A model generated the notes under the pieces. That model searched no databases. It saw only the letters and a list, made by a program, of their open reading frames with translations, and was not told where the DNA came from. A DNA stretch of 43,707 bases from a virus. The stretch lies in UHGV virus genome UHGV-0360526, one strand, 5' to 3'. This document shows positions 10,029 to 36,367 of the stretch, in pieces (position 1 is the stretch's first letter; each line of letters starts with the position of its first letter). Made by a program: the position numbers and the translations under genes.

Positions 10029-10058
10029 CCGTCCTTGATTTTTAACTACAGAATAGTC

Positions 10059-10104: not shown

Positions 10105-10120
10105 GATCTGGGAGGTTTTA

Positions 10121-10681: not shown

Positions 10682-10887
10682 ACTTGACCGTTTTACCGGT
10701 AATGGAGGCCAATGCAAACTTTTATCAAAACTTAACAATCCCAAATCATGAAGCGCGGAGTTGGGCATCACTTTCACGTTAGAAGATGATGGATTAAAAC
10801 CAGTATAATAATCCGCTTATAAAAAATATTGGGGGGGGGTAAAGCACCTCTCCAGATCTTTTAGCTCCCGATAGAGAATTAAATATC

Positions 10888-13800: not shown

Positions 13801-15486
13801 CGAGACACTAACGATGCACCGTGGTCAGATTGGGCACAAGTTTATACTGCCCGTGACAGTATTCCTGGTGTAAATGCTACCGGTAATCAAGATACTACCG
13901 GCAACGCCGCTACCGCGACGAAACTGAAAACCGCTCGCAGAATCGGCGGCGTTACCTTTGACGGTACTGGGGATATCAATTTACCAGGGGTTAACCAGCA
14001 AGGCAACCAGAATACGACAGGTAATGCAGCAACCGCTACCAAGTTACAAACAGGACGTAGGATCGGTGGTGTGGTTTTCGATGGGACGAAAGACGTTAAT
14101 CTTCCTGGAGTAAACCAAGCCGGTAACCAACCGACTACGGGGAATGCTGCGACTGCGACTAAGCTCCAGACTGCACGAAATATAGGTGGCGTAGCTTTTG
14201 ATGGCACTAAGGACATCAATTTACCTGGCGTAAACCAGACGGGTAATCAGTCGACCACCGGAAACGCGGCCACTGCAACAAAGTTGCAAACTGCAAGAAC
14301 CATCAACGGTATTGCGTTTGACGGCACTAAAAACATCGAAATAACGGCTGAGAGTTTAAATCTTGGTCAAACTGTAGAATTGGCCGGTGGGTCATTGCAG
14401 AAGAAACAGAACGGTGCCGATATTCCAGATAAAAGGAAATTCTTACGAAATGTTGGTGCCCCGAACACAACAACCATATCTTTTAATGGTGGTGCCGGAT
14501 GGTTCAAACTGGCAACTGTAACGATGCCACAAGCCAGTTCCGTGGTTTACATAAGCATGATTGGCGGTGCAGGGTTTAACGTTGGTTCCCCGCATCAAGC
14601 GGGTATTTCTGAGCTGGTTCTGCGCGCCGGGAATGGAAATCCAAAAGGTATCACTGGTGCTTTATGGCGACTGACCTCAGTCGGCTTTACTAATTTTGCA
14701 TGGGTGAATACATCTGGTGACACCTACGATATTTATGTTGAAATAGGTAATTACGCCACGGGTGTTAACATTCAGTGGGATTACACCAGTAACGCCAGCG
14801 TAACGATCCATACAACGCCAAGTTATACGGCTAATAAACCAGCAGGACTAACAGACGGAAACGTCTATCTGATTTATAGCACACACAACAAACCTAACGC
14901 TGGTGACATCGGTGCATTACCGTCAGGGGGCGGTACTATAGGTGGCGATTTAACCGTTAACGGTAAATTGGTCACTAAGTACCCTGATTTTCGAATCGCT
15001 TACGGCAACTACGGCTTTATGTTACGTAACGATGGTGCCAATACCTATTTCTTAGTAACCGACGCCGGACAAGCTGCAACGGGTTCCTGGAACGGACTAC
15101 GTCCGTTGTATTTTAATAACGCTAACGGCCAAGTAACCTTTGGTCATAACGTTACTGGCAGCGGTAACGGTTCGTTTAACGACGTACAGATTCGTTCTGA
15201 CCGTCGTAACAAACGTAATCTGGTGAAACTGGATAAAGCTTTGGATCGGTTAGAGTTACTAACCGGTTATTTGTACGAAATTCAGCATCCGGATGACGGT
15301 TGGCAAACCTCTGTAGGTCTAATTGCTCAAGACGCATTAGAAGCGTTACCTGAACTTGTGTCTGAGGATGATGATGCCATTTCAGGCGAAAAACGTTTAC
15401 GTCTAAATTACAATGGTGTTATTGCGCTGTTAGTAGAGGGTATGAAGTCTCTTCGCCGAGAGCTTAAAGAGCTTAAGGAGAAATAA
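10888..15486 (+). CDS. long tail fibre protein with tandem fibre repeats and C-terminal intramolecular chaperone (peptidase S74-like) domain
   Basis: 1532 aa; Ala/Thr/Gln-rich coiled-coil-like N-terminal region; six ~40-aa repeats (GNQxTTGNAATATKLQTARxIGGVxFDGTxDINLPGVNQ); C-terminal SDRRNKRN...GLIAQD...LRLNYNGVIALLVEG resembles the autoproteolytic chaperone domain of phage fibres/endosialidases. Confidence 0.8.
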   Translation: MAKAVKKIRLHDLRPYTGDIGEGVLLFSKDERDYQLPVREIVADIDTVRNAVADAQTAAAKSQQSATEATQAKDLAEAAKQETDTLASTISEQAKTVATKTAEVSKKHAEVLAAKTAVDTVSQSVNEKAQAVATSEQSVTAAVADVTKKAETVTQKAGQVQQTATSIANTAASVEASKGAVEKVAAQVTKDKESSEGAATRSESAALRAEKIAAQGLIDASTTGKGIVKLNNTLTSESVTEAATPSTVKQLNDELQLKANKHSPNFTGKPTSPTPPKDSNDTSISTTAWVRAAIAELVGSSPETLDTLAELAEALGNDPNFATTITEKLAQKQPISPLLTAIAAVTSAANKLPYFTGANKVGLTDFTETARTLLAKGTTADIINFLGLKATVDKANGALQKNSNGADIPDKETFARNIGLSPDTYLRFRGEMPLDADINTFAPNTNYTGTWAKSTSTNASMAKHFPEDGAVGYLEVYKAGNYSGAQRFTCRNGNVYNRMLSGAWNGANGPWSPWRMVTTGVRPLSTSIDLNSLGGAEHMGNWRNSSSSLAVFSRHYPEEGGGAQGVLEVMEGGLFGRLQRYTTRRGTMYVRGLTATWDSSNPQWEDWIQVGYQTDGAFFKANFNDLVKPGRFSVTGEATNGPLTGSSGETILGVCEVTLRLDGTGVEQNYTTYGTGVETKGRKFQRIRTGNAWSDWREVFTSYSLPLVLGIGGERANVDPLDWQTYDFKPGELICTPLNTMKNIPAGMDWGVIDGNLVSILVGPSDGASSGRSMLVWRSTVSTANYRFFAVRIAGEKGSRTITPRQMPVLNAAHTWAEKQTFAKGLAGELTGNASTATKLKTARRIGGVAFDGSGDINLPGVNQQGNQNTTGNAGTATKLQTARNINGVRFDGSADININTLVGRGRVTALSGSNKGTPGIQMYEVYNNGYPTAYGNLLHLGGSTAVGEGELLIGWSGTSGAHAPVYIRSRRDTNDAPWSDWAQVYTARDSIPGVNATGNQDTTGNAATATKLKTARRIGGVTFDGTGDINLPGVNQQGNQNTTGNAATATKLQTGRRIGGVVFDGTKDVNLPGVNQAGNQPTTGNAATATKLQTARNIGGVAFDGTKDINLPGVNQTGNQSTTGNAATATKLQTARTINGIAFDGTKNIEITAESLNLGQTVELAGGSLQKKQNGADIPDKRKFLRNVGAPNTTTISFNGGAGWFKLATVTMPQASSVVYISMIGGAGFNVGSPHQAGISELVLRAGNGNPKGITGALWRLTSVGFTNFAWVNTSGDTYDIYVEIGNYATGVNIQWDYTSNASVTIHTTPSYTANKPAGLTDGNVYLIYSTHNKPNAGDIGALPSGGGTIGGDLTVNGKLVTKYPDFRIAYGNYGFMLRNDGANTYFLVTDAGQAATGSWNGLRPLYFNNANGQVTFGHNVTGSGNGSFNDVQIRSDRRNKRNLVKLDKALDRLELLTGYLYEIQHPDDGWQTSVGLIAQDALEALPELVSEDDDAISGEKRLRLNYNGVIALLVEGMKSLRRELKELKEK
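13381..14361 (+). repeat. in-frame tandem coding repeats (~120 nt / 40 aa) within the tail fibre gene
   Basis: Two copies at 13381-13590 and four at 13882-14361 encode GNQxTTGNAATATKLQTARxIGGVxFDGTxDINLPGVNQ; copies differ mainly at synonymous positions. Confidence 0.8.
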
Positions 15487-15489
15487 AAA

Positions 15490-15993
15490 ATGGGGGTAGC
15501 ATCTGGATGGGTCGGTTCTTCGGCCAAGAACGAAACGGGCGAACAATGGATGAGCGCTGCTGGTAGTAAATTAGGACTGGGTAGACCTTTTATGATGAGT
15601 CAAATGGTGGGAAGATCTATGGGCTGTAAAATTGCAACCGCTGCATATAGCGATTCTTTAGGTAAGAAATGGGGCGCGGTAGGACCAAGCTGGCCGTTAA
15701 ACCAGAAAAATCAGGGAACCATTCAAAACGCTGGTAACTGCGGGGTGGGAACTTTAGTAGGTATCGAGTTACAGTTAACGACGGTAGTTGCTAACGCAAA
15801 GCCTACTTTAGCGGTTTACTTACAAGGCGGCAGAACCTCTAACATTACCGTAAATTTAGGTGGCAACACCTGCGCGCTGACCTATCAGCAGGTTATTAAC
15901 GGACAGCATTATTACTGGACTAATAACATCAGCGCTGCGTTCCAAAACGTGATGAAATCAACAGGCGCACTACGTGATTTGAGAATTAGCTAA
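15490..15993 (+). CDS. hypothetical Gly-rich protein downstream of tail fibre (possible fibre accessory or adhesin)
   Basis: 167-aa ORF starting 4 nt after the fibre stop; Gly/Asn-rich; function inferred only from position. Confidence 0.4.
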   Translation: MGVASGWVGSSAKNETGEQWMSAAGSKLGLGRPFMMSQMVGRSMGCKIATAAYSDSLGKKWGAVGPSWPLNQKNQGTIQNAGNCGVGTLVGIELQLTTVVANAKPTLAVYLQGGRTSNITVNLGGNTCALTYQQVINGQHYYWTNNISAAFQNVMKSTGALRDLRIS

Positions 15994-16080: not shown

Positions 16081-18015
16081 ATGATGTTGGTGCGCGATAT
16101 TAAAGATTACACCGAACTAACAGCATACGCGTTAAATTCGTTGTTAACACTTGACAAACCAGAAATATTCGACGAATCCGTCACGATGACGGTAGACCAA
16201 GAAACGAACTATGATTACGTTGGTCAAGTTACTGGTCGTGTTTCTGTGGCTAGTCCCACTGAATATAAAATTGCGATGTATACCTATACAACGGGAGAGT
16301 ACGCGCAAGGTGAATCACCATTAAACGAATCAGGTGAGTTTAATTTTAAACGAACATGGCCGGGGACAAAACAATTTCGTTTAATTAGAATTGCTGATGG
16401 CAAATGGATTTCTACGTTAGAGTTCCCATTGTGCATACGTAGTTACCATATGCCAGAAAACGCGGACCCTGAAACGATCAGGATTATGAAAGATCGTTGT
16501 TATACTTACGATCAGGCTGTTGCTACTCTTGCATTAATGGCCTACGGTCATGAAAAGGTAGAACAGTTTGTAAAAGGTCTTTTAGCGCTGGTCAATGAAG
16601 ACGGTGGTGTTAAATTCTACGTAAACCGACTTTCGGCTAAATCTTCGCGAAATTATTACCGTATGGGCAACGTCGCGTGGGTACTTTACGCTTTAGCTTT
16701 TTATCTTGAAAAATTTCCTGCCGGAAATCTAGCGGCACAGGTTCATGAAAAATTAACACTTTCCTTAACCTGGCTGGAAACTTATAAGGTAACGCAGGAG
16801 ACAGATCGCCGCAAAGGTTTATATCTTGGTGGAAAGGGTCGTTTTGTTACTACCGAATCAGGCGAACGTGTTTTTGAAGAAGACTACGTTGCACCTTTTG
16901 CGGCTTTAGAACATCAGGTAGATATTTGGTTCCTGTTCGAATTACTAGGGCGCGTCGGTTTTGATGCATACCAACAAAAAGCAGCGGACTTCGGTAATAG
17001 AATAGTAGAAGCTTTTTGGATGGAAGACGAAGGACGTTTTCGTCAGGGTGTGAGAGAAACAGAAGATGATAACGCAGCTGCGTTAGATCAGTCCAGTTGG
17101 GGTGGGCTATTTGCGGCCAAATTTAAACCAGAGTACGCCGAACGTTGTCACGCTTTTATGGAGAAATTTCGTTCGGAAACCTCTGAGTGTCGTGGCTACA
17201 CACCATACAAAACCGAGTTTGGTTACCCTACTGCTAAAGAAGGGGTGTGGGTTGAAGGTGCCGCCGGTGTTGCGTTATTCGAACGTCAGTTAGGAAATGA
17301 TAAACGTGCTGTTGAGATCATTAACGACTTAGATGTTCTTTTATCAGAATACGGTTATCGTGATTCTTGCGATGATCCTACCTACGATACGCTGCCGCCG
17401 TGGTGGTCAACCACAAACACTGCATGGGTGCTTTTAGTCTGTAAGCCAAGTAATTTTTGGCTTGTAGATAAGCCTCCTTTAACGGAGAGATATAATCCGC
17501 AGAATAAATTTTTACCAGATATTTCATTAAACTCTTTAAATCTTGTAATTTCGTTAGTGAATCACGATTTAAAAACAGATTACACGGAGTCTGATGTTGA
17601 AATCAGCAAGATTTCACTTAGCACGGAAGAAAATCGTGACACAACAGCGATAATGGAAATAAAACGTCCTAATAAACGGTCGTTACAGATCTATTACAAC
17701 CGTTTAACCGCAGCGCGGTGGTTAAACCAGCAACCTATTCTGGTAAAGGTCACCGGTAACGGTTTTACTACACGCGATCTGATCGACGGAATTAACGCGG
17801 CTTGTGGTTGTAATTTACAACCCGACGATCTTACTGACGACACATTTACCGTAGGGAAAGACGCTGTAACGTTACAGGTTTCACCCAACTCGTTAGGTTA
17901 TAAAGGTCAATTCTCCGTTCTGGTTTTCGGTAACGATGAAGAAGCCGCTGTGGTAAAAGACAACGATTTAATCGTTACCGCAGATAACCGTGTCTTAACA
18001 TTCGGAGGTCACTAA
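16081..18015 (+). CDS. putative (alpha/alpha)6-barrel glycoside-hydrolase-like virion protein with C-terminal fibre-docking-like domain
   Basis: 644 aa; central region has repeated helix-pair signatures (YDQAVATLALMAYG, NVAWVLYALAFY, LDQSSWGGL, TNTAWVLLV) typical of six-hairpin glycosidases; C-terminus homologous to ORF 10121-10681; enzyme assignment is tentative. Confidence 0.35.
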   Translation: MMLVRDIKDYTELTAYALNSLLTLDKPEIFDESVTMTVDQETNYDYVGQVTGRVSVASPTEYKIAMYTYTTGEYAQGESPLNESGEFNFKRTWPGTKQFRLIRIADGKWISTLEFPLCIRSYHMPENADPETIRIMKDRCYTYDQAVATLALMAYGHEKVEQFVKGLLALVNEDGGVKFYVNRLSAKSSRNYYRMGNVAWVLYALAFYLEKFPAGNLAAQVHEKLTLSLTWLETYKVTQETDRRKGLYLGGKGRFVTTESGERVFEEDYVAPFAALEHQVDIWFLFELLGRVGFDAYQQKAADFGNRIVEAFWMEDEGRFRQGVRETEDDNAAALDQSSWGGLFAAKFKPEYAERCHAFMEKFRSETSECRGYTPYKTEFGYPTAKEGVWVEGAAGVALFERQLGNDKRAVEIINDLDVLLSEYGYRDSCDDPTYDTLPPWWSTTNTAWVLLVCKPSNFWLVDKPPLTERYNPQNKFLPDISLNSLNLVISLVNHDLKTDYTESDVEISKISLSTEENRDTTAIMEIKRPNKRSLQIYYNRLTAARWLNQQPILVKVTGNGFTTRDLIDGINAACGCNLQPDDLTDDTFTVGKDAVTLQVSPNSLGYKGQFSVLVFGNDEEAAVVKDNDLIVTADNRVLTFGGH

Positions 18016-25885: not shown

Positions 25886-26317
25886 ATGTTTTTCGTATTA
25901 AATGATGAATTTCGTAACTACATTCGTAACAACCCTATTGCTCTGGGCGTTTTAGCAGGTTTCTGTCGTCCAAATACTGATTTCGATTTAGTTAAGTTAG
26001 AAGAATATCAGGAAATTGTGAATACTAACTACTTGCACATCTGTAGCTGGGGTAAACGTCCTCGCGAAGAGTACCCTATCGGTGAGTTAGGTGACAGTAT
26101 GCATCGTGACCAGAATCTGATGCACGAATTCGTTGAATACACACTGGAAAATCTTAACTATCCGCTTCTGGTCGACACTGTACCAGAAATGGTTGACGAA
26201 TGGTTAAGTCGTGTTTACAACGATCCTACTGCCAGCACTCTACTGAGTCAGATGTCGCAAACTTCTCGTGATATCGACACCCGGACCCTGATGTACTTAG
26301 CACACAACGTTCGTTAA
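25886..26317 (+). CDS. hypothetical protein, paralog of ORF 24238-24666
   Basis: 143 aa; RBS aaaggag; aligned motifs with the 24238 product. Confidence 0.55.
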   Translation: MFFVLNDEFRNYIRNNPIALGVLAGFCRPNTDFDLVKLEEYQEIVNTNYLHICSWGKRPREEYPIGELGDSMHRDQNLMHEFVEYTLENLNYPLLVDTVPEMVDEWLSRVYNDPTASTLLSQMSQTSRDIDTRTLMYLAHNVR

Positions 26318-26324
26318 TCTCACT

Positions 26325-26380
26325 CCGCTATAGGCTTCGGTCTATAGCGGAATTAATTTTCTTTCCCTTTTCTTTTTTTG
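26325..26380 (+). terminator. rho-independent terminator
   Basis: Stem ccgctatag-gcttcgg-tctatagcgg followed by long T-rich run. Confidence 0.75.
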
Positions 26381-26485
26381 TTATTTTGACGCTACGTTAC
26401 TTACCTTCTACTCGGCTATTCCTATGCTGGCTGAGGGATGTAAAACGACCTCTTAAACCTTTTTTACTTATTGTGAGTTAACGCG

Positions 26486-27334
26486 ATGTCTCTTACGTCA
26501 AAACAGAAACTGCTAAAACTCATCAACACTGAAAACAATATTGTTCCGCCATTGACCTTCAGTGATGTTGATATCGGCGAACCTACTGGTACTGGGGTTG
26601 ATACCCAGGTGGTTCTGACTTCTAAACTCAAAGGCGATGAGTCTACTACTTTAACCGTGACTTACCATCGTCGTAATTTGCCCGAATACCTAACAGGTGA
26701 GTTGGTATTCGGTAACGACGGTGTTGTAACTGCTGCAGATTTGCTTAATGCGATCAACGCAAAATACGATTTAAATATTCTGCCGTCGGATATCATTGAT
26801 GCGAAAGTTGAAGGTGAAACCCATCAGCTTACCGCTAACGAGAAATCCTACGAATGGTGTGGCGAGGTGACACTCACGCTACGCGACCCTATTGATCTGG
26901 CTAAATTGTTACCTGTTACTCAATTAGAAAACCTGGTAGAGTATCCGTCCACTAAGAAAGGTAACGCAGCGGTTTATTCTTATCCAATTGACTTCACCGC
27001 AGAAAAAGATTACCTCGATCCGATTACCATTAACGACACCGTAGACTTAGTAGAGTTAGCCACTAAACTGACTAACGTCGTTGATGAGAAATGGGTAAGT
27101 GTACCTAAGAACACTGCTAATAACCTGTACGGTGCTAAGGTTATCTACGACGGCCCTACCGCAGGTTTCGAAGGTGCAAATACGAAGTACACGCGTGTGC
27201 TGGTACTCGCCCTAAGCGGTATGTGTTCTAACCTGACCGGTAAACTGTTAATTCACTTTAACGGAACCGATCGTCCGAAGTCGAAGATTGAATTAGCCAA
27301 GACTAATTCGGTCTTACCGGGATTCTTAGATTAA
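26486..27334 (+). CDS. hypothetical protein, member 1 of a four-gene paralog family
   Basis: 282 aa; N-terminal pattern (L..LI.......TF.DVD.G.P......T.VVLT) shared with ORFs 27348, 30488, 31098. Confidence 0.55.
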   Translation: MSLTSKQKLLKLINTENNIVPPLTFSDVDIGEPTGTGVDTQVVLTSKLKGDESTTLTVTYHRRNLPEYLTGELVFGNDGVVTAADLLNAINAKYDLNILPSDIIDAKVEGETHQLTANEKSYEWCGEVTLTLRDPIDLAKLLPVTQLENLVEYPSTKKGNAAVYSYPIDFTAEKDYLDPITINDTVDLVELATKLTNVVDEKWVSVPKNTANNLYGAKVIYDGPTAGFEGANTKYTRVLVLALSGMCSNLTGKLLIHFNGTDRPKSKIELAKTNSVLPGFLD

Positions 27335-27347
27335 GAGGATTACAGTA

Positions 27348-27824
27348 ATGACCAGTCAAGAAACTATCTTCGATCTTATTAAAAAGGCTAACCCAGACGC
27401 TGAGTTCGACACCGCCAAAGTCACATTGGGCGAGCCCGTCGTAAGTACCGGTACGTACAACACCGAAATTACGGTTGTTCCGGTTAAGAATCTCGGTTAT
27501 GTTAATAAGCAAACGTTCCAGTATAACCGCATTGATGCAGGTTTGTATTTCCTCAACGTATTGCCGAAACTGTTAGTTGAAACAGCCGCCACAACTGCGG
27601 ACCTGTTGCCTGTAGTTAACGAGCAGTATGGCTTAACCCTTACCGAAGATGACGTATGGGTAGAGCAGGTTGGTCAGTTACCGCTGGACGGTAGTGCAAT
27701 CGAGCACGGTATTTTCTTCCGTCCCGAGTGTTTAACCTGGGTCGGTGGTTTTACAGTGCGGGTTGCGCGTAAACCGGCTGCTGAAACACGGCCAGCCAAG
27801 CCATCACGCGCTAAGAAGAAATAA
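27348..27824 (+). CDS. hypothetical protein, member 2 of the paralog family (basic C-terminal tail)
   Basis: 158 aa; RBS agagga; N-terminal family pattern; C-terminus RKPAAETRPAKPSRAKKK. Confidence 0.55.
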   Translation: MTSQETIFDLIKKANPDAEFDTAKVTLGEPVVSTGTYNTEITVVPVKNLGYVNKQTFQYNRIDAGLYFLNVLPKLLVETAATTADLLPVVNEQYGLTLTEDDVWVEQVGQLPLDGSAIEHGIFFRPECLTWVGGFTVRVARKPAAETRPAKPSRAKKK

Positions 27825-27828
27825 CGAC

Positions 27829-27862
27829 AGGGTGGGGTAATCCCACCCTCTTTTCTTTTTTT
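27829..27862 (+). terminator. rho-independent terminator
   Basis: Stem agggtgggg-taat-cccaccct followed by cttttctttttttg. Confidence 0.8.
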
Positions 27863-27885
27863 GTGTAAAAGAGGAGTTAAACAAA

Positions 27886-28476
27886 ATGGCCGAACGTTGG
27901 ACTAAAGAAGGTATTATTGGATCAAAAACAGATTTAGAGGGTGGGTACGTTAATGACCCCGACGATAAAGGTGGGGAAACCTGTCACGGGGTAACACTGA
28001 CAACCGCACGCGAATACGGGTATAAAGGAAGAATGAAAGATCTGACCCGTGCGCAAGCGTTTGATATTTACGATCGCGGTTGGTGGAAGAAACTTAAACT
28101 CGATGAGATTTTCGCTATCTCGCCCTTACTCGCAGACCGGATGTTTGATTTTGCTATTAACTCTGGCCGCGTTAACTGTGTGAAATCGTTACAACGTATT
28201 CTCAACGTTTTAAATAACGAAGGGAGACTTTACGCAGATATTGACACCGACGGGGGCATGGGGCCTAAAACGCTAGGTGCCCTGAATGCTTATCTGAATT
28301 ACCGTAAAGGTGAGGGGTTAGGCATCTTAATCTTTGCGTTAATCTCACACCAGGTAACCTACTACACAGAAATCTCCGAAAAACGTAAGAAGAATGAAAA
28401 ATTCGCTTACGGCTGGTACGGACGCGTGTACAGGGAAATGCCGGATTATGTAGTGAAGGCGGGGTTAGTAAAATGA
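27886..28476 (+). CDS. GH108-type muramidase (endolysin-like) with C-terminal peptidoglycan-binding region
   Basis: 196 aa; N-terminal LEGGYVNDPDDKGGETCHGVT matches the glycoside hydrolase family 108 signature; C-terminal DGGMGPKTLGALNAYL resembles the associated PG-binding domain. Confidence 0.8.
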   Translation: MAERWTKEGIIGSKTDLEGGYVNDPDDKGGETCHGVTLTTAREYGYKGRMKDLTRAQAFDIYDRGWWKKLKLDEIFAISPLLADRMFDFAINSGRVNCVKSLQRILNVLNNEGRLYADIDTDGGMGPKTLGALNAYLNYRKGEGLGILIFALISHQVTYYTEISEKRKKNEKFAYGWYGRVYREMPDYVVKAGLVK

Positions 28477-28577
28477 ACTGGTTTGCTAAACTCTTAGCAC
28501 TATTGTGGAAAGCGTTAACGTCTGGACGGAAACGTAAAGACGAAAAACGCGGGTACGAATTTTTCTGGTTTCTTTAA
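28473..28577 (+). CDS. small ORF (34 aa) overlapping muramidase stop; possible small lysis-associated peptide
   Basis: ATG 28473 forms ATGA overlap with the muramidase stop; MNWFAKLLALLWKALTSGRKRKDEKRGYEFFWFL is amphipathic/hydrophobic; too short for the ORF track. Confidence 0.25.
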   Translation: MNWFAKLLALLWKALTSGRKRKDEKRGYEFFWFL

Positions 28578-28592
28578 GGAAAGGTGTGGGTA

Positions 28593-29258
28593 ATGGAAAA
28601 GCTTCAATATAAACGTTTAGACAATAAGTGGTTTGTATTAACGGAGGATTACCATTATCCGTTTACGTTACGCGAGATTTATCACGACCACGTACACTTA
28701 GACCGTGCGGTTTATTTAACGGGTGTATTGCCTGACACACAACTGTGGTTAACCGCACCGAAAGGGTTCGTTACCGATTTAGCGTCAATTCCTGAACACC
28801 TCCAGGGAATTTTCCATCCTGACGGACCGTGGGCACCTGCGGCCTGCATTCACGACCTACTTTATCAAAAATGTAACACGGAGCGGAGCTATCCCATGAC
28901 ACCGGGCGGTAACGTTTCGCGTATTATCGATAAAGAGTTCTCTGACTTAACATTCCTGCGTATTATGCAGTCGTTGGAAATCTCGCCTTATATCTGCCAA
29001 ACATTTTATAAGGCCGTTGTTGAATTCGGCTGGGATTCCTACGTAGATCCTAATGCAGAACCATCCTACAACACTAACGCGTTTCGTACGTTAGATTACA
29101 ATCGAAACTATTTATTCGTTCGCGAGTTTAAGGAGCCTGCAATTCCTGACCACGAACGTATTGATATCACCACAGAACAACCCGTTAATGTCAAATACCT
29201 GAACATCAAACGTGCTTTTCTGTCTGGGAGGGAAGATGTTTCATCCAAATCCGAGTAA
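28593..29258 (+). CDS. hypothetical protein (possibly DUF1353-like)
   Basis: Listed ORF 28584-29258; ATG 28593 follows RBS aaggaaagg; motif FVTDLASIPEHLQ reminds me of DUF1353 but not verified. Confidence 0.4.
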   Translation: MEKLQYKRLDNKWFVLTEDYHYPFTLREIYHDHVHLDRAVYLTGVLPDTQLWLTAPKGFVTDLASIPEHLQGIFHPDGPWAPAACIHDLLYQKCNTERSYPMTPGGNVSRIIDKEFSDLTFLRIMQSLEISPYICQTFYKAVVEFGWDSYVDPNAEPSYNTNAFRTLDYNRNYLFVREFKEPAIPDHERIDITTEQPVNVKYLNIKRAFLSGREDVSSKSE

Positions 29259-29751
29259 CTTTAAACTCAAAGAGTTAGTACCACAATCGTACATCGCCAA
29301 ATACGGTGATTCTGCAATTCGGTTTATGAACCCGTTGTTAATGATTTCGCTACAGCAGATTCGTAACCGTTTCGGTAGAATGGTGATTAACTCAACCGCC
29401 GCACAACAACGCGGACTAAGAACCTTAGATTTCTTTATTAATCAAGAAAAGCCTAAGGGCGGCAGTTATAAACAACGTGCGTTACAGCTTTACGCCGATT
29501 CAGGAAGTCAACACAAATTCGGTAACGCAATTGATGCAACGTTGTTGGATAGCACCGTAAAACAGGTTCACGACTATATCGCTGCTAACCCTGACGAGTT
29601 TCCGTTCATTCACTTTATTGAATGTGACATCAGTTGGTTACACATCGACGTTCGTAACCAGCCTAACATTACTTTCTGGTCACCAAATCGAGGTACTGTG
29701 AAGGTTGTTAAGCAAAAACCAATCGATTGGAGCGCCTTAGTCGAGATTTAA
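29236..29751 (+). CDS. peptidase M15-like (zinc D-Ala-D-Ala carboxypeptidase fold) cell-wall peptidase
   Basis: SQHKFGNAIDA (H-x6-D zinc ligands) and downstream WLHIDVR match the M15 family signature; ATG 29236 with RBS ggaggg. Confidence 0.6.
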   Translation: MFHPNPSNFKLKELVPQSYIAKYGDSAIRFMNPLLMISLQQIRNRFGRMVINSTAAQQRGLRTLDFFINQEKPKGGSYKQRALQLYADSGSQHKFGNAIDATLLDSTVKQVHDYIAANPDEFPFIHFIECDISWLHIDVRNQPNITFWSPNRGTVKVVKQKPIDWSALVEI

Positions 29752-29834
29752 TTATTTCTAAGGTGTTTATACCTTATTTTGTATAAAGGCGCTTAGAATG
29801 CGTTTTACGCACGATTTGGCGGTTAAAATGAATA

Positions 29835-29875
29835 TACCCTACTCCCGATAAGGAGTAGGGTAGTTTTTATTATTC
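29835..29875. terminator. bidirectional terminator between convergent genes
   Basis: Stem taccctactcc-cgataa-ggagtagggta flanked by A/T runs on both sides; lies between plus-strand stop 29751 and minus-strand stop 29870. Confidence 0.7.
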
Positions 29876-30352
29876 CGCAGGATGGAGCATTGTTCCAGTG
29901 TCAGGCGCTACACCTTCTATACAGCGGAAGAACGTAATGCCTTTACCATCGCCCGTTTTATATTCTAAAGTAGAATACGCAAAAGTTGGTGTTTTTGAAA
30001 GTAAACCATTCACACGGTAGTAACGTTGTCCTGTGATAGGATCGATATTCCCATTAACTTTACCTAATAAATCTTTATAAAGTTGGGGCGACTCAATCTT
30101 ACCATTTGGCCAAGTGGCTACCCAGTTAGCACCAGTATCGACTACGGTTACTGAACCCAACATGAGGTTAGTCGAATTGACGACAGGTTTATAATTTACA
30201 AAATCTTGCTCTACACCCATACAGGTGTAAATAACCATGTCGTGTGGCTCTACGGGTACAGTCGAGAATTGACCGTTAGCGGTGGGTTGTAGGGCACATC
30301 CTGCTAATGAAAAAACACCAACCATAGCGATAAGAAAACGTTTTAGCATGTT
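29870..30352 (-). CDS. lipoprotein (signal peptide with lipobox LAGC), possible superinfection-exclusion or receptor-masking protein
   Basis: Listed ORF to 30409; ATG at 30352 with RBS aaggtga gives MLKRFLIAMVGVFSLAGCALQ, a classic lipoprotein signal; function inferred from context only. Confidence 0.6.
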   Translation of the reverse strand, partial: NMLKRFLIAMVGVFSLAGCALQPTANGQFSTVPVEPHDMVIYTCMGVEQDFVNYKPVVNSTNLMLGSVTVVDTGANWVATWPNGKIESPQLYKDLLGKVNGNIDPITGQRYYRVNGLLSKTPTFAYSTLEYKTGDGKGITFFRCIEGVAPDTGTMLHPAE

Positions 30353-30434
30353 TTCACCTTCTATAAAAAAGTTAAAAATAATAATTTTACAGACGACCCT
30401 TACTGCCATCTGTCATAACTATTAAAACCACTTC

Positions 30435-30440
30435 TATAAT
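30435..30440 (+). promoter_or_regulatory. candidate sigma70-like -10 box (TATAAT)
   Basis: Perfect TATAAT about 47 nt upstream of ATG 30488 in the divergent intergenic region; -35 match is poor. Confidence 0.25.
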
Positions 30441-30487
30441 CCGAACAATACTATGCAATCCACCCTGCCACACACGAGGTAAAAACG

Positions 30488-31033
30488 ATGGCTAAAGCTT
30501 TCAATCTGCAGCTCATTGAAGCTGTTAAAGCTAAAAACCCTGAAACTGCTTCTAAACTGACCGTAAATGATGTCGATTTCGGGGCCGTAGAAGCTTACAC
30601 CCCGACCGGTAAAAGCGACGCCCGTAACACTAAAGTTGTCCTGACAGCGAAAGAAAGCAGCGCTAACTTCACCGGTAATAAAGAATTTCATTATATCCGT
30701 CTGGCTTCCGCTAACCTGATCGGTGCCAAAGCTTACCAGCAGGAAGGTAGCCTCGAACTGGAAAACGCTGCCATTGTAGCCAAACTGAACGAAGAGATGG
30801 TTACTAAAGGTTATGTAGATGACGCGTTTGCAGAAGGCGAACTCACTATTGAGAAAACTGACGGCGAAAGCGGTGCTAAAGTTTACACTGTCAAAGTAAA
30901 CGATGCGCACATCAAATTCTTAGCCGGTACCATTGCCACCTTCACCTATACCAACCCGGTTCCTCCGAAGACAGCTCTGAGCGGGCTGGAAGGTGAACTC
31001 GATGGTTTCACCGCACCGGGTATCGGGGGCTAA
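30488..31033 (+). CDS. hypothetical protein, member 3 of the paralog family
   Basis: 181 aa; RBS gaggt; C-terminal GELDGFTAPG shared with member 4. Confidence 0.6.
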   Translation: MAKAFNLQLIEAVKAKNPETASKLTVNDVDFGAVEAYTPTGKSDARNTKVVLTAKESSANFTGNKEFHYIRLASANLIGAKAYQQEGSLELENAAIVAKLNEEMVTKGYVDDAFAEGELTIEKTDGESGAKVYTVKVNDAHIKFLAGTIATFTYTNPVPPKTALSGLEGELDGFTAPGIGG

Positions 31034-31037
31034 TTAA

Positions 31038-31070
31038 ATCGGGGGGGGGTAACCTCCCCGATATTTCTTT
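31038..31070 (+). terminator. hairpin containing G9 tract (weak terminator)
   Basis: atcggggggggg-taacct-ccccgat followed by atttcttt. Confidence 0.4.
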
Positions 31071-31097
31071 AACTCGTACTATTAAGGATTTAAGATA

Positions 31098-31628
31098 ATG
31101 GCTGCTACTAACCAGATGATGTTGGTCGCGCTTTATAATGCTGCTAACACTGAGCTACCACATCAGGTTACTGATAAAGAAGTGTCCTTTGGTCTCCCTA
31201 CTGCGCTGGAAGGCGAAAGTAAGAATACCAAAGTTACCATGACTGCACTGCCAGGTTCTGAGAATTTCAAAGGCGCTATCGAACTGCATTACGATCGTCT
31301 GGAACCGGGAGTTGTAGGACGTATTGAACTAACTGACGATCTGTCTCGTTGGGAAGATCAAAACGAATTGCGCGCATGGTTACAATATTACATCAACAAA
31401 GTAAAACCTGACGATGCTATCGCACCAGCTGACGTTTCTTATTCTACCGAAGACCAGAAAGACGAACATGAAAACGTCACTCTGCGTACGGTAACGTGCA
31501 CCGTTACTGAAAAGAACCTCCGTTATAAACCGGGCGTAATGGCAACTTTCGTAATTACACCGAAAGTTGTTGATAATCGTATTGACCTGGCCACCACCAA
31601 CGGTGAGCTGGACGGTTTTACGTCCTAA
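31098..31628 (+). CDS. hypothetical protein, member 4 of the paralog family
   Basis: 176 aa; RBS aagga; C-terminal NGELDGFTS. Confidence 0.6.
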   Translation: MAATNQMMLVALYNAANTELPHQVTDKEVSFGLPTALEGESKNTKVTMTALPGSENFKGAIELHYDRLEPGVVGRIELTDDLSRWEDQNELRAWLQYYINKVKPDDAIAPADVSYSTEDQKDEHENVTLRTVTCTVTEKNLRYKPGVMATFVITPKVVDNRIDLATTNGELDGFTS

Positions 31629-31641
31629 GAAAAAATAAAAA

Positions 31642-31682
31642 TACCTACCTCCTATTACGGGAGGTAGGTATACTTTTTTTTC
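31642..31682. terminator. bidirectional terminator between convergent genes
   Basis: Stem tacctacctcc-tattacg-ggaggtaggta with A-run upstream and T-run downstream; between plus-strand stop 31628 and minus-strand stop 31691. Confidence 0.8.
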
Positions 31683-31690
31683 GCTGTCGA

Positions 31691-32362
31691 TTACAGCCCT
31701 TGCTCTAACGCAAACGCTTTTATCGAATCGTAATCACGTGCTTCAGCCCAAGCCCTGACTTCTCTTTTCTGCTCAGACATTGCGTGGTGTAGTCTTTGAT
31801 CGCGCTCAACGATTGCTGCCAGCAACGTCTTGCACTGTTCTAACGTAAACGGTTCAATACGGGTGTTGTTAGCCGTTAACCAATACGCTGGCGCAGTTTC
31901 TGACTGAATATAACGACTCAGTGCTACCTGTGACTTCTCATCTGCCTGGAAAGTGAAATCACCTACCTGAATCTCAGCATAGCGTGCATCCTGATAACGG
32001 AATTCCAAAGCGCTTAGAATTTTCTGAACATCGGTAAAGATGTACCGCACCGTGGAACGTAAACCTGTACGAATTTCTTCCAGGTCAATCCCCAACGTGT
32101 CGTTAACAAAGTCTTTCGCTTTCTGTAGCGTAAACCGTGCTTCGATTTCAGACATGTCGTAGTTACGCATTTGTTCCAATGCTTCGCGATCAGACATCCC
32201 ATCAATCAACTTATAGTGCAGTAACGCACAAAACCCTGTACGGCCGTGATCTTCACTACCGATTTTCTCCATGTAGTTACCATGACGGTCAATCGGTAAA
32301 TCATGCGCAAAATAACGGCGACGGATTTCTTCTTTCGTTAAGCCTTCACCAGTAGCAGACAT
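31691..32362 (-). CDS. hypothetical protein (last gene of minus-strand operon)
   Basis: 223-aa ORF overlapping the start of the upstream gene. Confidence 0.55.
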   Translation of the reverse strand: MSATGEGLTKEEIRRRYFAHDLPIDRHGNYMEKIGSEDHGRTGFCALLHYKLIDGMSDREALEQMRNYDMSEIEARFTLQKAKDFVNDTLGIDLEEIRTGLRSTVRYIFTDVQKILSALEFRYQDARYAEIQVGDFTFQADEKSQVALSRYIQSETAPAYWLTANNTRIEPFTLEQCKTLLAAIVERDQRLHHAMSEQKREVRAWAEARDYDSIKAFALEQGL

Positions 32363-32910
32363 TCATCGTCTCCTTTAATCAACCCTAATTCGATTAACAA
32401 TTCAAAATCGATATGACGGAATCTTGTGTCGAAGTCCGATTCCCAATCGATACGGATACCCTGGCATTCTTCTGGCGTTAGCTCAGGAAAAATCACGGTA
32501 TTAAATTTCTCTCGCTCATCGTAAAACCCATCAATCGGTGAGTTCGGGTTACGTGTTGCGAAGATAGTAATGCCGGGGAAGGACAATGCCAACACAGTGA
32601 TAGATTCTGCGCTGGGTTCGCTTAAAGAGCGGCGTAGAAACGCAATTTTGTGACGTGGGAAATCCAATACCCGTTCTTCAAACCCTGGGTTACGTTTTTC
32701 AATTTCCGCGACCGACAGGTCAGTAAGTTCGGTGCAGTACATTGGGATGATTACAGTCACGCCGTGACGAATCAGTAAGCGTTTTACGTCATCGGTAAAA
32801 TCTTCACCGTTAATCACCACATAACAACCGAATAGCTTACTGTTTTCCAGAAACTTATCCAGAAGTCGAATTCTACGCTTCGTAATATTGTTGATCAGAA
32901 TTGGTTTCAT
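32338..32910 (-). CDS. hypothetical protein
   Basis: 190-aa ORF; start overlaps the 3' end of the radical SAM gene. Confidence 0.5.
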   Translation of the reverse strand: MKPILINNITKRRIRLLDKFLENSKLFGCYVVINGEDFTDDVKRLLIRHGVTVIIPMYCTELTDLSVAEIEKRNPGFEERVLDFPRHKIAFLRRSLSEPSAESITVLALSFPGITIFATRNPNSPIDGFYDEREKFNTVIFPELTPEECQGIRIDWESDFDTRFRHIDFELLIELGLIKGDDECLLLVKA

Positions 32911-34195
32911 CTTTGGCTTCTCTTAATAATTTTTCCTTTTGGGCACGTTCACGAACACAGCGTGGGCAATAACACATGCTCGTGTCGTGGAACGCTTTTG
33001 CTGACGTCGTACCCATCTTCTGTTTCCAGTATTCCGCCACCATCAGTTTCGCTGTCGTCCAGCCACACTGACGACGTTCAGCGTGATACGCTTTACGGTC
33101 TTCTAACGTTCCTTCCCCGTTCTCGTAAGAAGCCGCCGCACAGCTACCACAAGCGTGTTTCATCGGACAACCTAAACAGGTCTCTGGGTAGTTGGTATAT
33201 TGCGTTTGAATCTCTTCTAACAATTTACCGTTGTCCAGACTGACGAATTCCCGACCTACCAACTCAAACACCGCAGAACGCGACGTTACCGTTGACATAA
33301 AGCGGTTACAGCCAAAGATCTTACGGTCAAATCCTAAGCACGTCATGTGGGTTAACGTCCCGCAGAACGGACGTAAACGTTCTGGGTTCAACCGTACAGT
33401 GTCATTATACAGTAACTGGTCACGCCAGTTCGGTTCCCAAATCGTATCGAAATCCAACCCTTCTGGAATGATGTGCGATAAGATATTACGTGGATTGGTG
33501 TGTAATCCTTTTTCAACCCAATAATCTATCACATCCATCATCTGTAAAGCGATTGATGTCGCCATGCTACGCGGCATAACGTCTTCGAAGGTTACGTTCC
33601 CAGAAATTGTCCCACCGCCAGTAATGTCAATTAATGACTTCATCCCCGCAGCATAGAACGGCAGTGTTTCTAACGTAAAGGTCGCTTTTACGCCGAGTTC
33701 TGCAATACCAACCTCTTTTAAGTAATTATAGCCACGTACTGCGGCTTCGTAAGAACCCTGACGCGTCGTTGTGAAGATACGATAGCGGTCATGGGATTCA
33801 GGTAAACCATCAATCGAAACCCCAACCGAAAGTTTGTCTTTCCAACGTTCTACAATCTCACGGTTCAACGGACGATCTAACAGCGTTCCGTTCGTGGAGA
33901 TACTAAACATAAACGGTCGGTTGTGTTCTTTACACAACTGCTCAGCGGTTTCAAACGCAGCCAGCAGCAGTTTAGGCTGCATGAACGGTTCACCACCGAT
34001 AATGTCGATAATAACTTCGACATTCGGTTCGTTTTTATCACGTTCAAAACAGGCGTGTAAGAAATCAACAATGTCAGCCGCTTTGTTGTTACGTGGGTAC
34101 TTACGTTCGTAGCAATATTCGCAGTCCAGGTTACACGAAAGGTTGGTTACGATCTGATACGTTAACTGCTTAGGGAATTCATTTACTTGACTCAT
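32873..34195 (-). CDS. radical SAM enzyme with C-terminal SPASM-like domain (peptide-maturase-like)
   Basis: 440 aa; CNLDCEYC (CxxxCxxC) near N-terminus, GGEP SAM-binding motif, C-terminal Cys clusters CGTLTHMTCLGFDRKIFGCNRF and CLGCPMKHACGSCAAAS. Confidence 0.8.
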   Translation of the reverse strand: MSQVNEFPKQLTYQIVTNLSCNLDCEYCYERKYPRNNKAADIVDFLHACFERDKNEPNVEVIIDIIGGEPFMQPKLLLAAFETAEQLCKEHNRPFMFSISTNGTLLDRPLNREIVERWKDKLSVGVSIDGLPESHDRYRIFTTTRQGSYEAAVRGYNYLKEVGIAELGVKATFTLETLPFYAAGMKSLIDITGGGTISGNVTFEDVMPRSMATSIALQMMDVIDYWVEKGLHTNPRNILSHIIPEGLDFDTIWEPNWRDQLLYNDTVRLNPERLRPFCGTLTHMTCLGFDRKIFGCNRFMSTVTSRSAVFELVGREFVSLDNGKLLEEIQTQYTNYPETCLGCPMKHACGSCAAASYENGEGTLEDRKAYHAERRQCGWTTAKLMVAEYWKQKMGTTSAKAFHDTSMCYCPRCVRERAQKEKLLREAKDETNSDQQYYEA

Positions 34196-35102
34196 TTGCC
34201 GCCCCTCTATTACGTCCTGCCATCACTACGCGACGAATATATTCGTACGCCTCTACACCGATAGAGAAGGCCAGTTGGTTACATCCCGATTCCAGAACGT
34301 TAGGTGCATTCTGGAGTTGGTGCTCACCACCGTCTGCATTAATCCAAAGACTTTCGCTGCAAACGTTACACCCTTCTTCAAACACTTTACTTACTGTAAA
34401 GCCGCATTCACGACCATTTACTACATTCAGTCGTTCAATGTTGTCCTGAACCTGATAGTAGCCGTAAATAAAGTTCATGACGTGGTCAGGCGATAAAGGT
34501 TTTGGCATTTTCGCGTCTAAGAGTAACGTCATTGCACGGAAACCGTAATGGTAAATCGCGCTGTGCAGCTGAATAATATCTTCGTGCCAGCGTTTGTCCC
34601 CTAAACGGTCCCGTGTCAGGACACCCCAAGTCTGGACATTATCCAGCTCGTAGATCGTTTCCAGTGCTTCGTAACAGCCTTCGTCAATAAAGCGCATAAA
34701 CGGGCGCTCAGACGACTTAAACCCATCGATGCTAACGTAGACATTGTCAAACTGTTTTAGCAACGGGAGATGCGATTTACGCATCTTTAAGCCATTGGTA
34801 TACAACTGGTGTTTGAGTTCTGGACGAATCACTTTTAATTCGTCAACAAACGCCTCAATTTTACGGGTTGCCAGTAATGGCTCACCACCCGTCCACTGAA
34901 TTTCGGTAATGGTTGGATTAGCTTCCAGCGCTTCCAAAATTCGCTCACGTTGAAACTCTCGCGGAGAATCTTCACGATTCATGTAATAGGCTCCACCGCA
35001 GAAGCTACAATCCAGGTTACACTTGGACGTAGCGACTACGGACAATACGGTGGGTTTATCGTATAAACGATTCGATAACCTTGGTTCTGCATTGGTTGTC
35101 AT
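34179..35102 (-). CDS. radical SAM enzyme (second, shorter paralog-like)
   Basis: 307 aa; CNLDCSFC (CxxxCxxC), GGEPLL motif, C-terminal Cys residues ECG..GCNVCSES..GCNQ; 17-nt overlap with downstream rSAM gene. Confidence 0.75.
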   Translation of the reverse strand: MTTNAEPRLSNRLYDKPTVLSVVATSKCNLDCSFCGGAYYMNREDSPREFQRERILEALEANPTITEIQWTGGEPLLATRKIEAFVDELKVIRPELKHQLYTNGLKMRKSHLPLLKQFDNVYVSIDGFKSSERPFMRFIDEGCYEALETIYELDNVQTWGVLTRDRLGDKRWHEDIIQLHSAIYHYGFRAMTLLLDAKMPKPLSPDHVMNFIYGYYQVQDNIERLNVVNGRECGFTVSKVFEEGCNVCSESLWINADGGEHQLQNAPNVLESGCNQLAFSIGVEAYEYIRRVVMAGRNRGAANESSK

Positions 35103-35123: not shown

Positions 35124-36023
35124 TTAAATATAATCAATGGCGAACAAAGGATCGTCGTCTACGTTAGCACCAGGGGTTAACAAGAATGGAGAGTTATACG
35201 CTTCCAAAATACGATTAAGGTCTTTATAACGGACATTTAAACGTTCTAAATCCGCTAACGTTACGTTACGGTCCAACACCGCCGACACTGCTGCTTTCTC
35301 TTCGTCAGTTAACGTGACTTTCGTCATTAAGAAACTAACGAGTTTTGCCAGATCCGCTTCTGTTGACGGATGCTCGCCAATACGTGTTTGAATCAAATGC
35401 TGCATCCAAGGCTTACGGATGCGTTTTGTGATTTCGTGTTCATCCGTCAGGGCAACCCACACGGAACGTTCACGGTCCCACACGAACTTATAGCTGTACG
35501 CCATTAAATCCGCTAAGCAATTAATCCCTAACGCTTCGTACCCTTCAATTTCGATATACGATTCCGTATCGAAATAGTTCTTCGTTTCTGGTGTTACCAG
35601 AGTAAAGAAATACGGGAACGAGCCTAAGTAATCTGGCGACCACCAACGACGGGCAACCGGTTTTGCACCCATTTCTTCAAATGGGGTAAAGAACAATTCC
35701 ATATCTACGGAGTTATTCAAAATCCCGTCACTAAAGAAATATTTACCCGCAACCAGTTTACCACGCAACTCGGAGTCACCGGTAAAAACCACTACACTTT
35801 CTGCCGTCAGATCACGAATCTTAAACGTATTTTCTACACGATAGTTTTTACGATCGGTAAAGAAACGTCCGCGCACTTTAGGCCATTCGCCCGGCAACTG
35901 TGTCAGCAGACGAACTTCATCTGCTAAATGTGCACGTACGGAATCAGGGGAAGAAATGTGAAGTGGATGATTGAAAATTGTTTTGTACGCTAAATGTAAA
36001 TCATTCTTCATCGATTGCTCCAA
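35124..36023 (-). CDS. hypothetical protein between Cys-rich peptide genes and radical SAM genes
   Basis: 299-aa ORF with RBS ggag; no recognisable motif. Confidence 0.5.
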   Translation of the reverse strand: MEQSMKNDLHLAYKTIFNHPLHISSPDSVRAHLADEVRLLTQLPGEWPKVRGRFFTDRKNYRVENTFKIRDLTAESVVVFTGDSELRGKLVAGKYFFSDGILNNSVDMELFFTPFEEMGAKPVARRWWSPDYLGSFPYFFTLVTPETKNYFDTESYIEIEGYEALGINCLADLMAYSYKFVWDRERSVWVALTDEHEITKRIRKPWMQHLIQTRIGEHPSTEADLAKLVSFLMTKVTLTDEEKAAVSAVLDRNVTLADLERLNVRYKDLNRILEAYNSPFLLTPGANVDDDPLFAIDYI

Positions 36024-36160
36024 TTATTTCGCGGTCAAACGGACATTCAGGGTATAGAAACCACCGCACCATTACCTACCGGTAACTTGAAACTCAGTAG
36101 TAAACCCGTACGATTAACTCGGTTATTGCGTAATAGACATACTACCACTGGAGGGCTTAG

Positions 36161-36367
36161 TTACCTTCCCCCCGCACCTTTACTACAGCTACCACTGCAC
36201 GACCAGCTACATCCGCCGTTACAGTTATAATGGCTTAAAGGTAAACCGGCAAGGTTATTGGTTGAAGACACGGTGCCCTGGTTTGCAATATAGTTGTTTG
36301 CGTTAGCGGTCGTAATATACCCTTCCGCTGTTACTAACCGATCACGAAGGTTCTTAAGGCTAATCAC
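36161..36367 (-). CDS. CxxxC-repeat Cys-rich peptide 3 (short core)
   Basis: Listed ORF 36161-36433 overlaps peptide 2 out of frame; GTG at 36367 preceded by gggagg gives VISLKNLRDRL..., matching the leaders of peptides 1 and 2; core CNGGCSWSCSGSCSKGAGGR. Confidence 0.5.
   Translation of the reverse strand: MISLKNLRDRLVTAEGYITTANANNYIANQGTVSSTNNLAGLPLSHYNCNGGCSWSCSGSCSKGAGGR

Follow-up and report, generated by a model that had tools for sequence, protein, structure and literature searches.

A conserved muramidase, candidate phospholipase A2 and M15-like peptidase cassette with a possible role in envelope demolition by an SPN3US-like jumbo phage

Lysis of Gram-negative hosts is understood as the action of a holin, then an endolysin, then a spanin, and the LysA/LysB enzymes of mycobacteriophages and the disruptin (gp28) of phage phiKT represent non-spanin solutions for the outermost layer. 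To our knowledge, a sizeable minority of phages has no recognisable spanin, and lysis by jumbo phages has barely been studied. Here we describe a cassette of four co-oriented genes, encoding a GH108 muramidase, a 34-residue peptide, a DUF1353 protein and an M15-like zinc peptidase, located at positions 27886-29751 of a 43,707-nucleotide stretch of the virus genome UHGV-0360526 (the window, that is, the whole stretch of DNA analysed). As the typhoid toxin islet of Salmonella Typhi, which holds the DUF1353 protein TtaP, also contains the GH108 muramidase TtsA, the phage cassette and the islet share two unusual families. Gartly et al. 2024 (PMC11525133) identified TtaP experimentally as a phospholipase A2 (PLA2) that cleaves a fluorogenic PLA2 substrate and Escherichia coli phosphatidylethanolamine and phosphatidylglycerol, with a dead D85A mutant, a His/Asp dyad (H70, D85) with an adjacent Asp (D71), and a distant kinship to the group XIV secreted PLA2s. 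On balance, we lean towards reading the phage cassette as a late, non-virion envelope-demolition operon of an SPN3US-like jumbo phage, in which the candidate phospholipase would supply the membrane damage.

The four open reading frames (ORFs) listed in a sequence-only reading of this stretch were all found at their coordinates, tightly packed on the + strand between two hairpin terminators, with starts and stops overlapping or closely spaced. A G+C-rich hairpin followed by a T-run (27829-27849, +) ends the preceding head-paralog gene and marks the 5' boundary, and the GH108 gene (27886-28476, +) starts 36 nt past this hairpin with an AGGAG ribosome-binding site in front. The start of the 34-residue ORF (28473-28577, +) overlaps the GH108 stop codon (ATGA), an arrangement of translational coupling. 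The ATG of the DUF1353 gene (28593-29258, +) lies 16 nt after the stop of the peptide gene and is preceded by AAGGAAAGG, and the M15-like gene (29236-29751, +) overlaps the DUF1353 gene by 23 nt. At the 3' boundary, a bidirectional hairpin terminator (29835-29862) stands between the cassette and a convergent lipoprotein gene. Strong terminator-like hairpins, several of which are bidirectional, were also found after most genes of the region 26000-32000 (13, versus 6.2 expected from shuffled sequence).

The window is part of the genome of a jumbo myophage related to Seoulvirus (Salmonella phage SPN3US and its relatives). Its DNA is only ~74% identical to Seoulvirus genomes (megablast), and its gene order matches those of SPAsTU, SPN3US and SPLA3. 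Near-identical contigs of 220-225 kb were found in IMG/VR, with DUF1353 proteins 94-97% identical to that of the window, and further matching contigs in one Logan assembly and in NCBI record SKEP01000003.1. In SPN3US, the orthologues of the GH108, DUF1353 and M15-like proteins are gp156, gp157 and gp158, respectively.

The central member of the cassette is the 221-aa product of the gene at 28593-29258, left as an unknown protein in the sequence-only reading, which had supposed that it may supply membrane disruption. Pfam assigned it to DUF1353 (PF07087, E 8e-15, 54.7 bits vs a cut-off of 22.5), with additional N- and C-terminal extensions specific to jumbo phages. Secreted Ca2+-dependent PLA2s use a His48/Asp49/Asp99 arrangement. 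In the window protein, H87, D88 and D118, together with a GFVTD motif, are invariant across 49 homologues, and the three residues were equated with H70, D71 and D85 of TtaP on the strength of the shared Pfam domain and of the pattern of residues published for TtaP. A model of the protein placed H87/D88 on a helix spanning residues 81-91 and D118 on a helix spanning 114-127, and its best structural match in a fold comparison was a fungal PLA2, a tentative indication of a PLA2-like helical core. Sequence and profile searches of the Protein Data Bank (PDB) with this protein and with the M15-like protein gave nothing meaningful, the matches of both coming from fold comparison alone. The window protein is thus probably a Ca2+-type PLA2 (His87-Asp88...Asp118), as judged from family membership and residue conservation, and the supposition of membrane disruption gains support, since DUF1353 is the family of the proven PLA2 TtaP and the catalytic residues are kept.

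A lipoprotein or Tat signal is frequent among the DUF1353 members encoded by bacteria of very diverse phyla, which indicates that the family acts on the periplasmic side. Wall hydrolases were considered as neighbours of the chromosomal bacterial genes and were not found in that position; the immediate neighbours included caspase-like Peptidase_C14 proteins (6/141), CHAT proteins (4) and TPR proteins. This suggests that bacterial DUF1353 proteins are exported membrane-attacking effectors used in several kinds of system, perhaps including caspase/CHAT-type conflict or cell death. In the searchable literature we found no paper joining PLA2, endolysin, spanin and outer membrane, and the TtaP study cites prophage DUF1353 proteins as confounders only (PMC11525133).

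The two enzymes that flank this candidate phospholipase correspond to different peptidoglycan hydrolases, bearing out an earlier claim that two such activities stand in a row. The 196-aa GH108 protein, of the TtsA/Sen1395 type, matched Pfam Glyco_hydro_108 above its cut-off (E 1.1e-23), with a C-terminal PG_binding_3 domain (E 1.6e-15), as well as PHROG 315, endolysin (E 5e-43); its match to the NCBIfam model 'holin-associated N-acetylmuramidase' was below the cut-off of that model. Among known structures, it matched 6V3Z (Sen1395, E 3e-43) and 6V40 (a 197-aa PG_binding_3 muramidase, E 1e-42), the latter of which we take to be TtsA. The alignments with these crystal structures are nearly full length, to residue 178-179; in both, the catalytic EGGYVNDPDDKGGET motif of the phage protein is aligned, and LEGGYVNDPDDKGGET (EGGY...DxGG, including the catalytic Glu) falls on the same motif. 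The protein is therefore a putative muramidase, predicted to cut glycan strands.

The product of the gene at 29236-29751 appears to be a divergent M15A zinc peptidoglycan peptidase (Peptidase_M15_3-like), and fold comparison gave it a LAS / Hedgehog-DD-peptidase fold. Its putative zinc site is formed by H93-x6-D100 in SQHKFGNAID and H136 in WLHIDVRN, and the whole set R62, H93-x6-D100, E129, H136 and D138 is invariant. No Pfam match to the curated M15 models (PF08291, PF13539, PF02557) was obtained up to E 5, nor any NCBIfam match, and PF08291 is present in only one homologue, 60% identical, which places the protein in a divergent subgroup. It may be regarded as a putative peptidase cutting peptide stems or cross-links. 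Hydropathy scans revealed no signal peptide, signal-anchor-release (SAR) domain or transmembrane (TM) segment in the GH108, DUF1353 or M15-like proteins.

The 34-residue ORF had been proposed, like the DUF1353 protein, as a source of membrane disruption. A comparison of six lineage members showed 15 variable sites in it, of which 10 are at the third base of a codon and no more than 5 alter the protein, and SPN3US has the N-terminal motif NWFA.L...W.AL..(R)RKR in the corresponding position; this third-position bias and the recurrence of the motif make it a real gene and not a chance ORF. The encoded peptide is cationic (net charge +5), with 16 hydrophobic N-terminal residues, an RKRK cluster and an aromatic C-terminus. 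It matched no family in Pfam, PHROG or PADLOC (the latter recognised no cassette protein at all), and it falls below the TM threshold used throughout this work (a 19-residue Kyte-Doolittle window of at least 1.6), being too short and polar for a canonical TM helix. A disruptin-like amphipathic helix was also considered and rejected, as its maximum hydrophobic moment of 0.45 was equalled by 701 of 2000 shuffled sequences (35%). The peptide is possibly active at the membrane surface. SPN3US and the Erwinia jumbo phages encode a peptide of 30-55 aa in which an acidic/proline motif (DDDPPP) is followed by one TM helix and whose gene ends at the DUF1353 start codon (3401-3493, 3352-3504, 3367-3501, 3388-3504 and 3322-3483 within five extracted SPN3US/Erwinia-phage loci). 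This single-TM peptide, which in those relatives is translationally coupled to the DUF1353 gene and which the window lineage does not have, may tether the phospholipase to the membrane or serve it as a mini-holin.

The cassette is kept in all Seoulvirus genomes, where it is already annotated. The earlier description of it as unusual is qualified by this. The order of gp156-gp157-gp158 in SPN3US, and that in jumbo phages of Erwinia, Cronobacter and Proteus, is the same as in the window, along with flanking lipoprotein, DUF4376, radical-SAM and head-paralog genes, at protein identities of 59-78%. The window lineage differs from the SPN3US and Erwinia phages at the DNA level (~74%) and in lacking the second small ORF, a single-TM peptide of 30-50 aa, upstream of DUF1353. 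The composition varies among jumbo relatives: GH108, DUF1353 and M15 occur together in the window lineage and SPN3US; GH108, the TM peptide and DUF1353, with no M15, in Erwinia phages of the Caitlin/Huxley type; DUF1353 and M15, with no GH108, in Derbicusvirus (Phobos, CR5); and, in a Vibrio jumbo phage, DUF1353 without either enzyme. All of these relatives keep the DUF1353 gene, while its peptidoglycan-hydrolase partner is swapped.

Outside the jumbo phages, the surroundings of DUF1353 are diverse. In Fusobacterium phages (phiRTG5) the order of the lysis cassette is endolysin, a protein with an N-terminal TM segment, DUF1353 and holin; Caulobacter phage DMCA has an M15 peptidase, a proline-rich lipoprotein and DUF1353; and enterobacterial-type prophages carry a tail fibre, a tail-fibre-assembly/DUF4376 gene and then DUF1353. 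Neighbours were counted with Pfam for 44 non-redundant IMG/VR viral loci, and the 88 neighbouring proteins included 8 holins, 9 peptidoglycan-hydrolase domains, 8 DUF4376 and 2 tail-fibre N-terminal domains. GH108 directly beside DUF1353 was sought in small prophages and bacteria by tblastn with the GH108, M15, lipoprotein and DUF4376 proteins of the window, and was found in 0 of 145 loci; the adjacency of these two families thus seems specific to jumbo phages. A DUF4376 gene lies within ~2.5 kb of DUF1353 in those Seoulvirus, Erwinia-phage and Derbicusvirus relatives that were compared and not in Vibrio phage pVp-JHP1101. DUF4376 also accompanies DUF1353 in Fusobacterium and enterobacterial-type prophages, there as the C-terminal part of tail-fibre-assembly-like proteins.

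No canonical holin had been seen next to the cassette, nor a spanin pair, and this was confirmed within the window by scanning every ORF of 25 aa or more for hydropathy and lipoboxes. Within ~18 kb of the cassette, no ORF was multi-TM or resembled a spanin; no holin-type TM ORF was detected at the 1.6 threshold on the + strand between 26.5 and 29.8 kb; and neither an i-/o-spanin pair nor a u-spanin stood beside the cassette, with no embedded lipobox ORF and the only lipoprotein on the opposite strand. In the two ORFs proposed earlier for such a check, the scan found no TM helix in 28473-28577 and neither a TM segment nor a signal peptide in 28593-29258. Apart from the convergent lipoprotein (29870-30349), the window encodes no membrane proteins but two small single-TM ones 19 kb upstream (8814-9220). 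The genes for the latter (8814-9026 and 9023-9220, +) are coupled and encode products of 70 and 65 aa with one N-terminal TM/signal segment and two C-terminal Cys ~18 residues apart. They matched no family and look like paralogs, for which a holin/antiholin-like role is conceivable. Similar small di-Cys membrane proteins are encoded in SPLA3 (78122-78265, 115224-115433 and 117756-118088).

We propose that the cassette supplies three soluble cytoplasmic enzymes with different targets, in which GH108 would act on glycan strands, M15A on peptide stems or cross-links, and the DUF1353 PLA2 on phospholipid, encoded along with a small cationic peptide. As none of the three could cross the inner membrane unaided, they would build up harmlessly late in infection until this membrane is opened by holin-type proteins from genes elsewhere in the genome, or else by the phospholipase and the peptide themselves. 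Upon such breach, the GH108 and M15 hydrolases would dissolve the wall. The phospholipase, being a His/Asp enzyme of the secreted Ca2+-dependent type, would be silent at cytoplasmic Ca2+ and active after the breach, so that gating could be exerted by Ca2+ or by a holin. Once active, it would release lysolipid and fatty acid from the inner membrane and from the inner leaflet of the outer membrane, weakening the last barrier, and would in this way replace or assist spanins, which normally perform this step. This reading rests on homology and synteny, the contextual evidence being mixed, and we hold it with moderate confidence.

The sequence-only reading had also suggested that one enzyme may be virion-associated for entry, and proteomics of SPN3US bears on this. 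In triplicate analyses of SPN3US virions, peptide-spectrum matches (PSM) amounted to 3, 2 and 3 for gp156, 3, 3 and 3 for gp157, and 9, 8 and 10 for gp158, with similar counts in tailless heads (2-10 per run), whereas the 12-copy portal yielded ~283 PSM and the capsid protein ~6700; gp156, gp157 and gp158 were each classed as Non-virion (PMC10052503 Table S2). The SPN3US authors view such trace proteins as trapped cytoplasmic proteins. As only trace counts were obtained for proteins placed in the Non-virion class, gp156-158 appear to be made during infection and to be non-structural, and their presence in particles only as traces argues against a role in entry. Taking these orthologues as a proxy, the suggestion of a virion-associated enzyme was not upheld, with 2-10 spectra against ~283 for the portal. 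It is true that gp157 was listed as a low-abundance head protein in 2017 SPN3US data (4 peptides, 9 spectra), that gp158 was seen sporadically in some particle preparations, and that the cassette genes sit among head-paralog (DUF7941) genes; yet, given the later triplicate analysis, it is very improbable that any of the three enzymes travels with the particle, or is expelled from its head, and opens the wall or membrane during infection. The same non-virion status of gp157 bears on the database annotation of the DUF1353 protein, which both PHROG 1158 (E 4e-60) and GenBank records label 'tail assembly chaperone'. Were this label right, the protein would help to assemble the tail or the tail fibre, and morphogenesis and endolysin genes would have come together in the cassette by chance at a tail-fibre/lysis boundary. 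The gene order of many enterobacterial-type prophages given above is in line with this, the PHROGs of DUF1353 neighbours include tail-fibre families as often as lysis families, and the window itself holds tail-fibre genes and a DUF4376 gene. However, the label is positional, with no experimental basis found in the searchable literature on DUF1353, and it does not agree with the proven enzymatic activity of the family member TtaP, the invariance of the catalytic His/Asp, or the exported lipoproteins and Tat substrates that many bacterial DUF1353 proteins represent in non-phage contexts. We therefore judge an assembly factor to be an improbable identity for this protein.

Several observations weigh against an envelope-demolition operon. 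Tail-fibre or tail-fibre-assembly/DUF4376 genes adjoin DUF1353 as often as lysis genes do, and independent lysis contexts are few, since the 8 holin neighbours and most of the endolysin neighbours come from one Fusobacterium prophage clade. The amphipathicity of the 34-residue peptide is no better than that of shuffled sequences. TtaP left the S. Typhi envelope without visible damage, and toxin release did not require it (PMC11525133); such harmlessness in intact cells would, we propose, be explained by inactivity of the PLA2 at cytoplasmic Ca2+. Finally, the lineage encodes a third peptidoglycan hydrolase amid small membrane proteins. In Seoulvirus SPLA3, a fully PHROG-annotated genome with no annotated holin or spanin, this is an SLT transglycosylase with an N-terminal signal sequence (35454-36176 of the extracted stretch), in a region with a cluster of small 1-2-TM ORFs, including a pinholin-like 67-aa 2-TM ORF, and a TM-protein/lipoprotein pair. 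The SLT of the window lineage (10001-10687 of the stretch extracted from NCBI SKEP01000003.1) has the cleavable-looking signal MFRIFFLLLVTLFAFNAYA/S (…FAFNAYA/SKS, the slash marking the cleavage site), lies ~37 kb from the cassette on the same 109.5-kb contig, and is flanked by a 159-aa 2-TM protein, small TM ORFs and a TM-protein/secreted-protein pair. With such small membrane proteins beside an SLT ~37 kb away, the lack of a holin in the window does not imply the lack of a holin in the phage, and the SLT locus is a possible second or primary lysis locus. The SLT could then be the real lysis system, and the GH108/DUF1353/M15 cassette consequently accessory, only allowing lysis across more wall chemistries or host states. 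One example might be LD-cross-linked stationary-phase murein, a speciality of TtsA-type muramidases and of M15A (MepK-type) peptidases; TtsA reportedly depends on LD-cross-links. Such an accessory module fits the observation that relatives dispense with, or exchange, the peptidoglycan-hydrolase partner of DUF1353. Against it, the membrane proteins of the SLT locus matched no holin or spanin family, and the SLT could have other uses. The SPLA3 TM-protein/lipoprotein pair (190375-191373), considered as the missing spanin, was weakened as a candidate because in the window lineage the orthologous protein carries an ordinary signal peptide with no lipobox Cys, so that the lipobox of the candidate o-spanin is not kept. 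In all, we regard a purely accessory role as rather unlikely, and continue to prefer the envelope-demolition operon.

With SPN3US gp156-158 and many relatives already in GenBank, the cassette is no novelty as a sequence; the new element, not met in the searchable literature, is that DUF1353 is read here as a phospholipase associated with lysis. If this reading is true, a phospholipase within an endolysin operon would constitute a third, enzymatic route for removal of the outer membrane, after spanins and disruptin, and a Gram-negative counterpart of the LysB of mycobacteriophages, and a widespread 'tail assembly chaperone' mis-annotation would be corrected. It would also give a testable function to TtaP, the sole gene product of the typhoid toxin islet that has no known biological role. 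A broader idea, possible but doubtful at present, is that DUF1353 PLA2s form an unrecognised class of phage lysis proteins, Ca2+-dependent lipid hydrolases that would be released or activated only on breach of the inner membrane, would then destroy the outer membrane and finish the inner one in place of spanins or alongside them, and would form a module with interchangeable peptidoglycan hydrolases. TtsA/TtaP would be a domesticated remnant of this module, and TtaP would thereby gain the long-sought outer-membrane-perturbing role in toxin release. The set of muramidase, peptidase and lipase could offer an enzybiotic combination against Gram-negatives, and the amber-mutant genetic system of SPN3US makes the lysis idea directly testable.

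Downstream of the cassette, the convergent lipoprotein gene (29870-30349, -) encodes a protein with the sequence MLKRFLIAMVGVFSLAGC..., a lipobox LAGC and a match to PHROG 9559 (E 3e-66). Its mature part of ~140 aa is folded and non-proline-rich, it has no TM partner, and it is not spanin-like. It is kept beside the cassette in SPN3US (gp159) and in the Erwinia relatives, and gp159 was classed as non-virion. A superinfection-exclusion or envelope protein is possible, and it may or may not be a functional member of the cassette. Further downstream, a DUF4376-domain gene (31691-32362, -; Pfam E 5e-11) is followed by two adjacent radical-SAM/4Fe-4S genes (440 and 307 aa; 32873-35102, -) and then by a conserved gene for a 299-aa protein; the radical-SAM pair is kept in Seoulvirus (gp163/164) and in Derbicusvirus beside the DUF4376 and DUF1353 genes. 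Tail-fibre genes are located upstream at 10888-15486 and 16081-18015 (the latter +). Within the 1532-aa tail-fibre gene, the interval 11001-12000 has a GC content of 0.50 and an AT skew of +0.26, compared to ~0.03 elsewhere, and a search of the tail-fibre region (10800-15600) revealed no tandem repeats. Several DUF7941 paralogs are encoded around the cassette (Pfam), a family that SPN3US proteomics places in the head. In the 644-aa protein encoded at 16081-18015, the first ~470 residues resemble tail-fibre families and the last ~160 the DUF7941 'head paralog' family, an odd fusion given this assignment of the SPN3US paralogs to the head. No tRNA genes were found within the window.

The closest known systems resemble the cassette in part. 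The M15-like protein shares the LAS fold, the H-x6-D...H pattern and the conserved Arg and Glu with MEROPS M15A / Peptidase_M15_3 enzymes (the Zn DD-peptidase of Streptomyces albus; MepK-type) and with the M15 endolysins of T5, Ply500 and LysB4, and differs from them in reaching no Pfam M15 model and in a helical insertion at residues 64-88. For the candidate phospholipase, the group XIV secreted PLA2s (Streptomyces violaceoruber 1LWB, Tuber borchii 4AUP) are among the closest known systems. The TtsA/TtaP islet is matched by the likeness of the GH108 protein to the TtsA/Sen1395 structures (E ~1e-43), by the kept catalytic residues of DUF1353 and by the lack of signal peptides. Unlike TtaP, which consists of the core domain only (125 aa), the phage DUF1353 protein has extra N- and C-terminal parts; moreover, ttsA and ttaP are not adjacent in the islet, which serves non-lytic toxin release and has no M15 peptidase. 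With the lambda SRRzRz1-type cassette (holin, endolysin and Rz/Rz1 spanins), the phage locus has in common clustered, co-transcribed genes for envelope destruction and one or more soluble endolysins that need a membrane lesion. It differs in having no holin and no spanin pair, two endolysin-type enzymes, and a candidate lipid hydrolase in the expected place of membrane-acting proteins. No His/Asp PLA2 acting on glycerophospholipid in phage lysis is described in the searchable literature, and the candidate enzyme, of the His/Asp PLA2 type, is distinct in this respect from LysB, a serine esterase acting on mycolyl-arabinogalactan, and from disruptin, a cationic peptide. Like LysB, itself a lipolytic esterase, and disruptin, it would be a product dedicated to the destruction of the outer lipid layer, with a gene that adjoins that of the endolysin.

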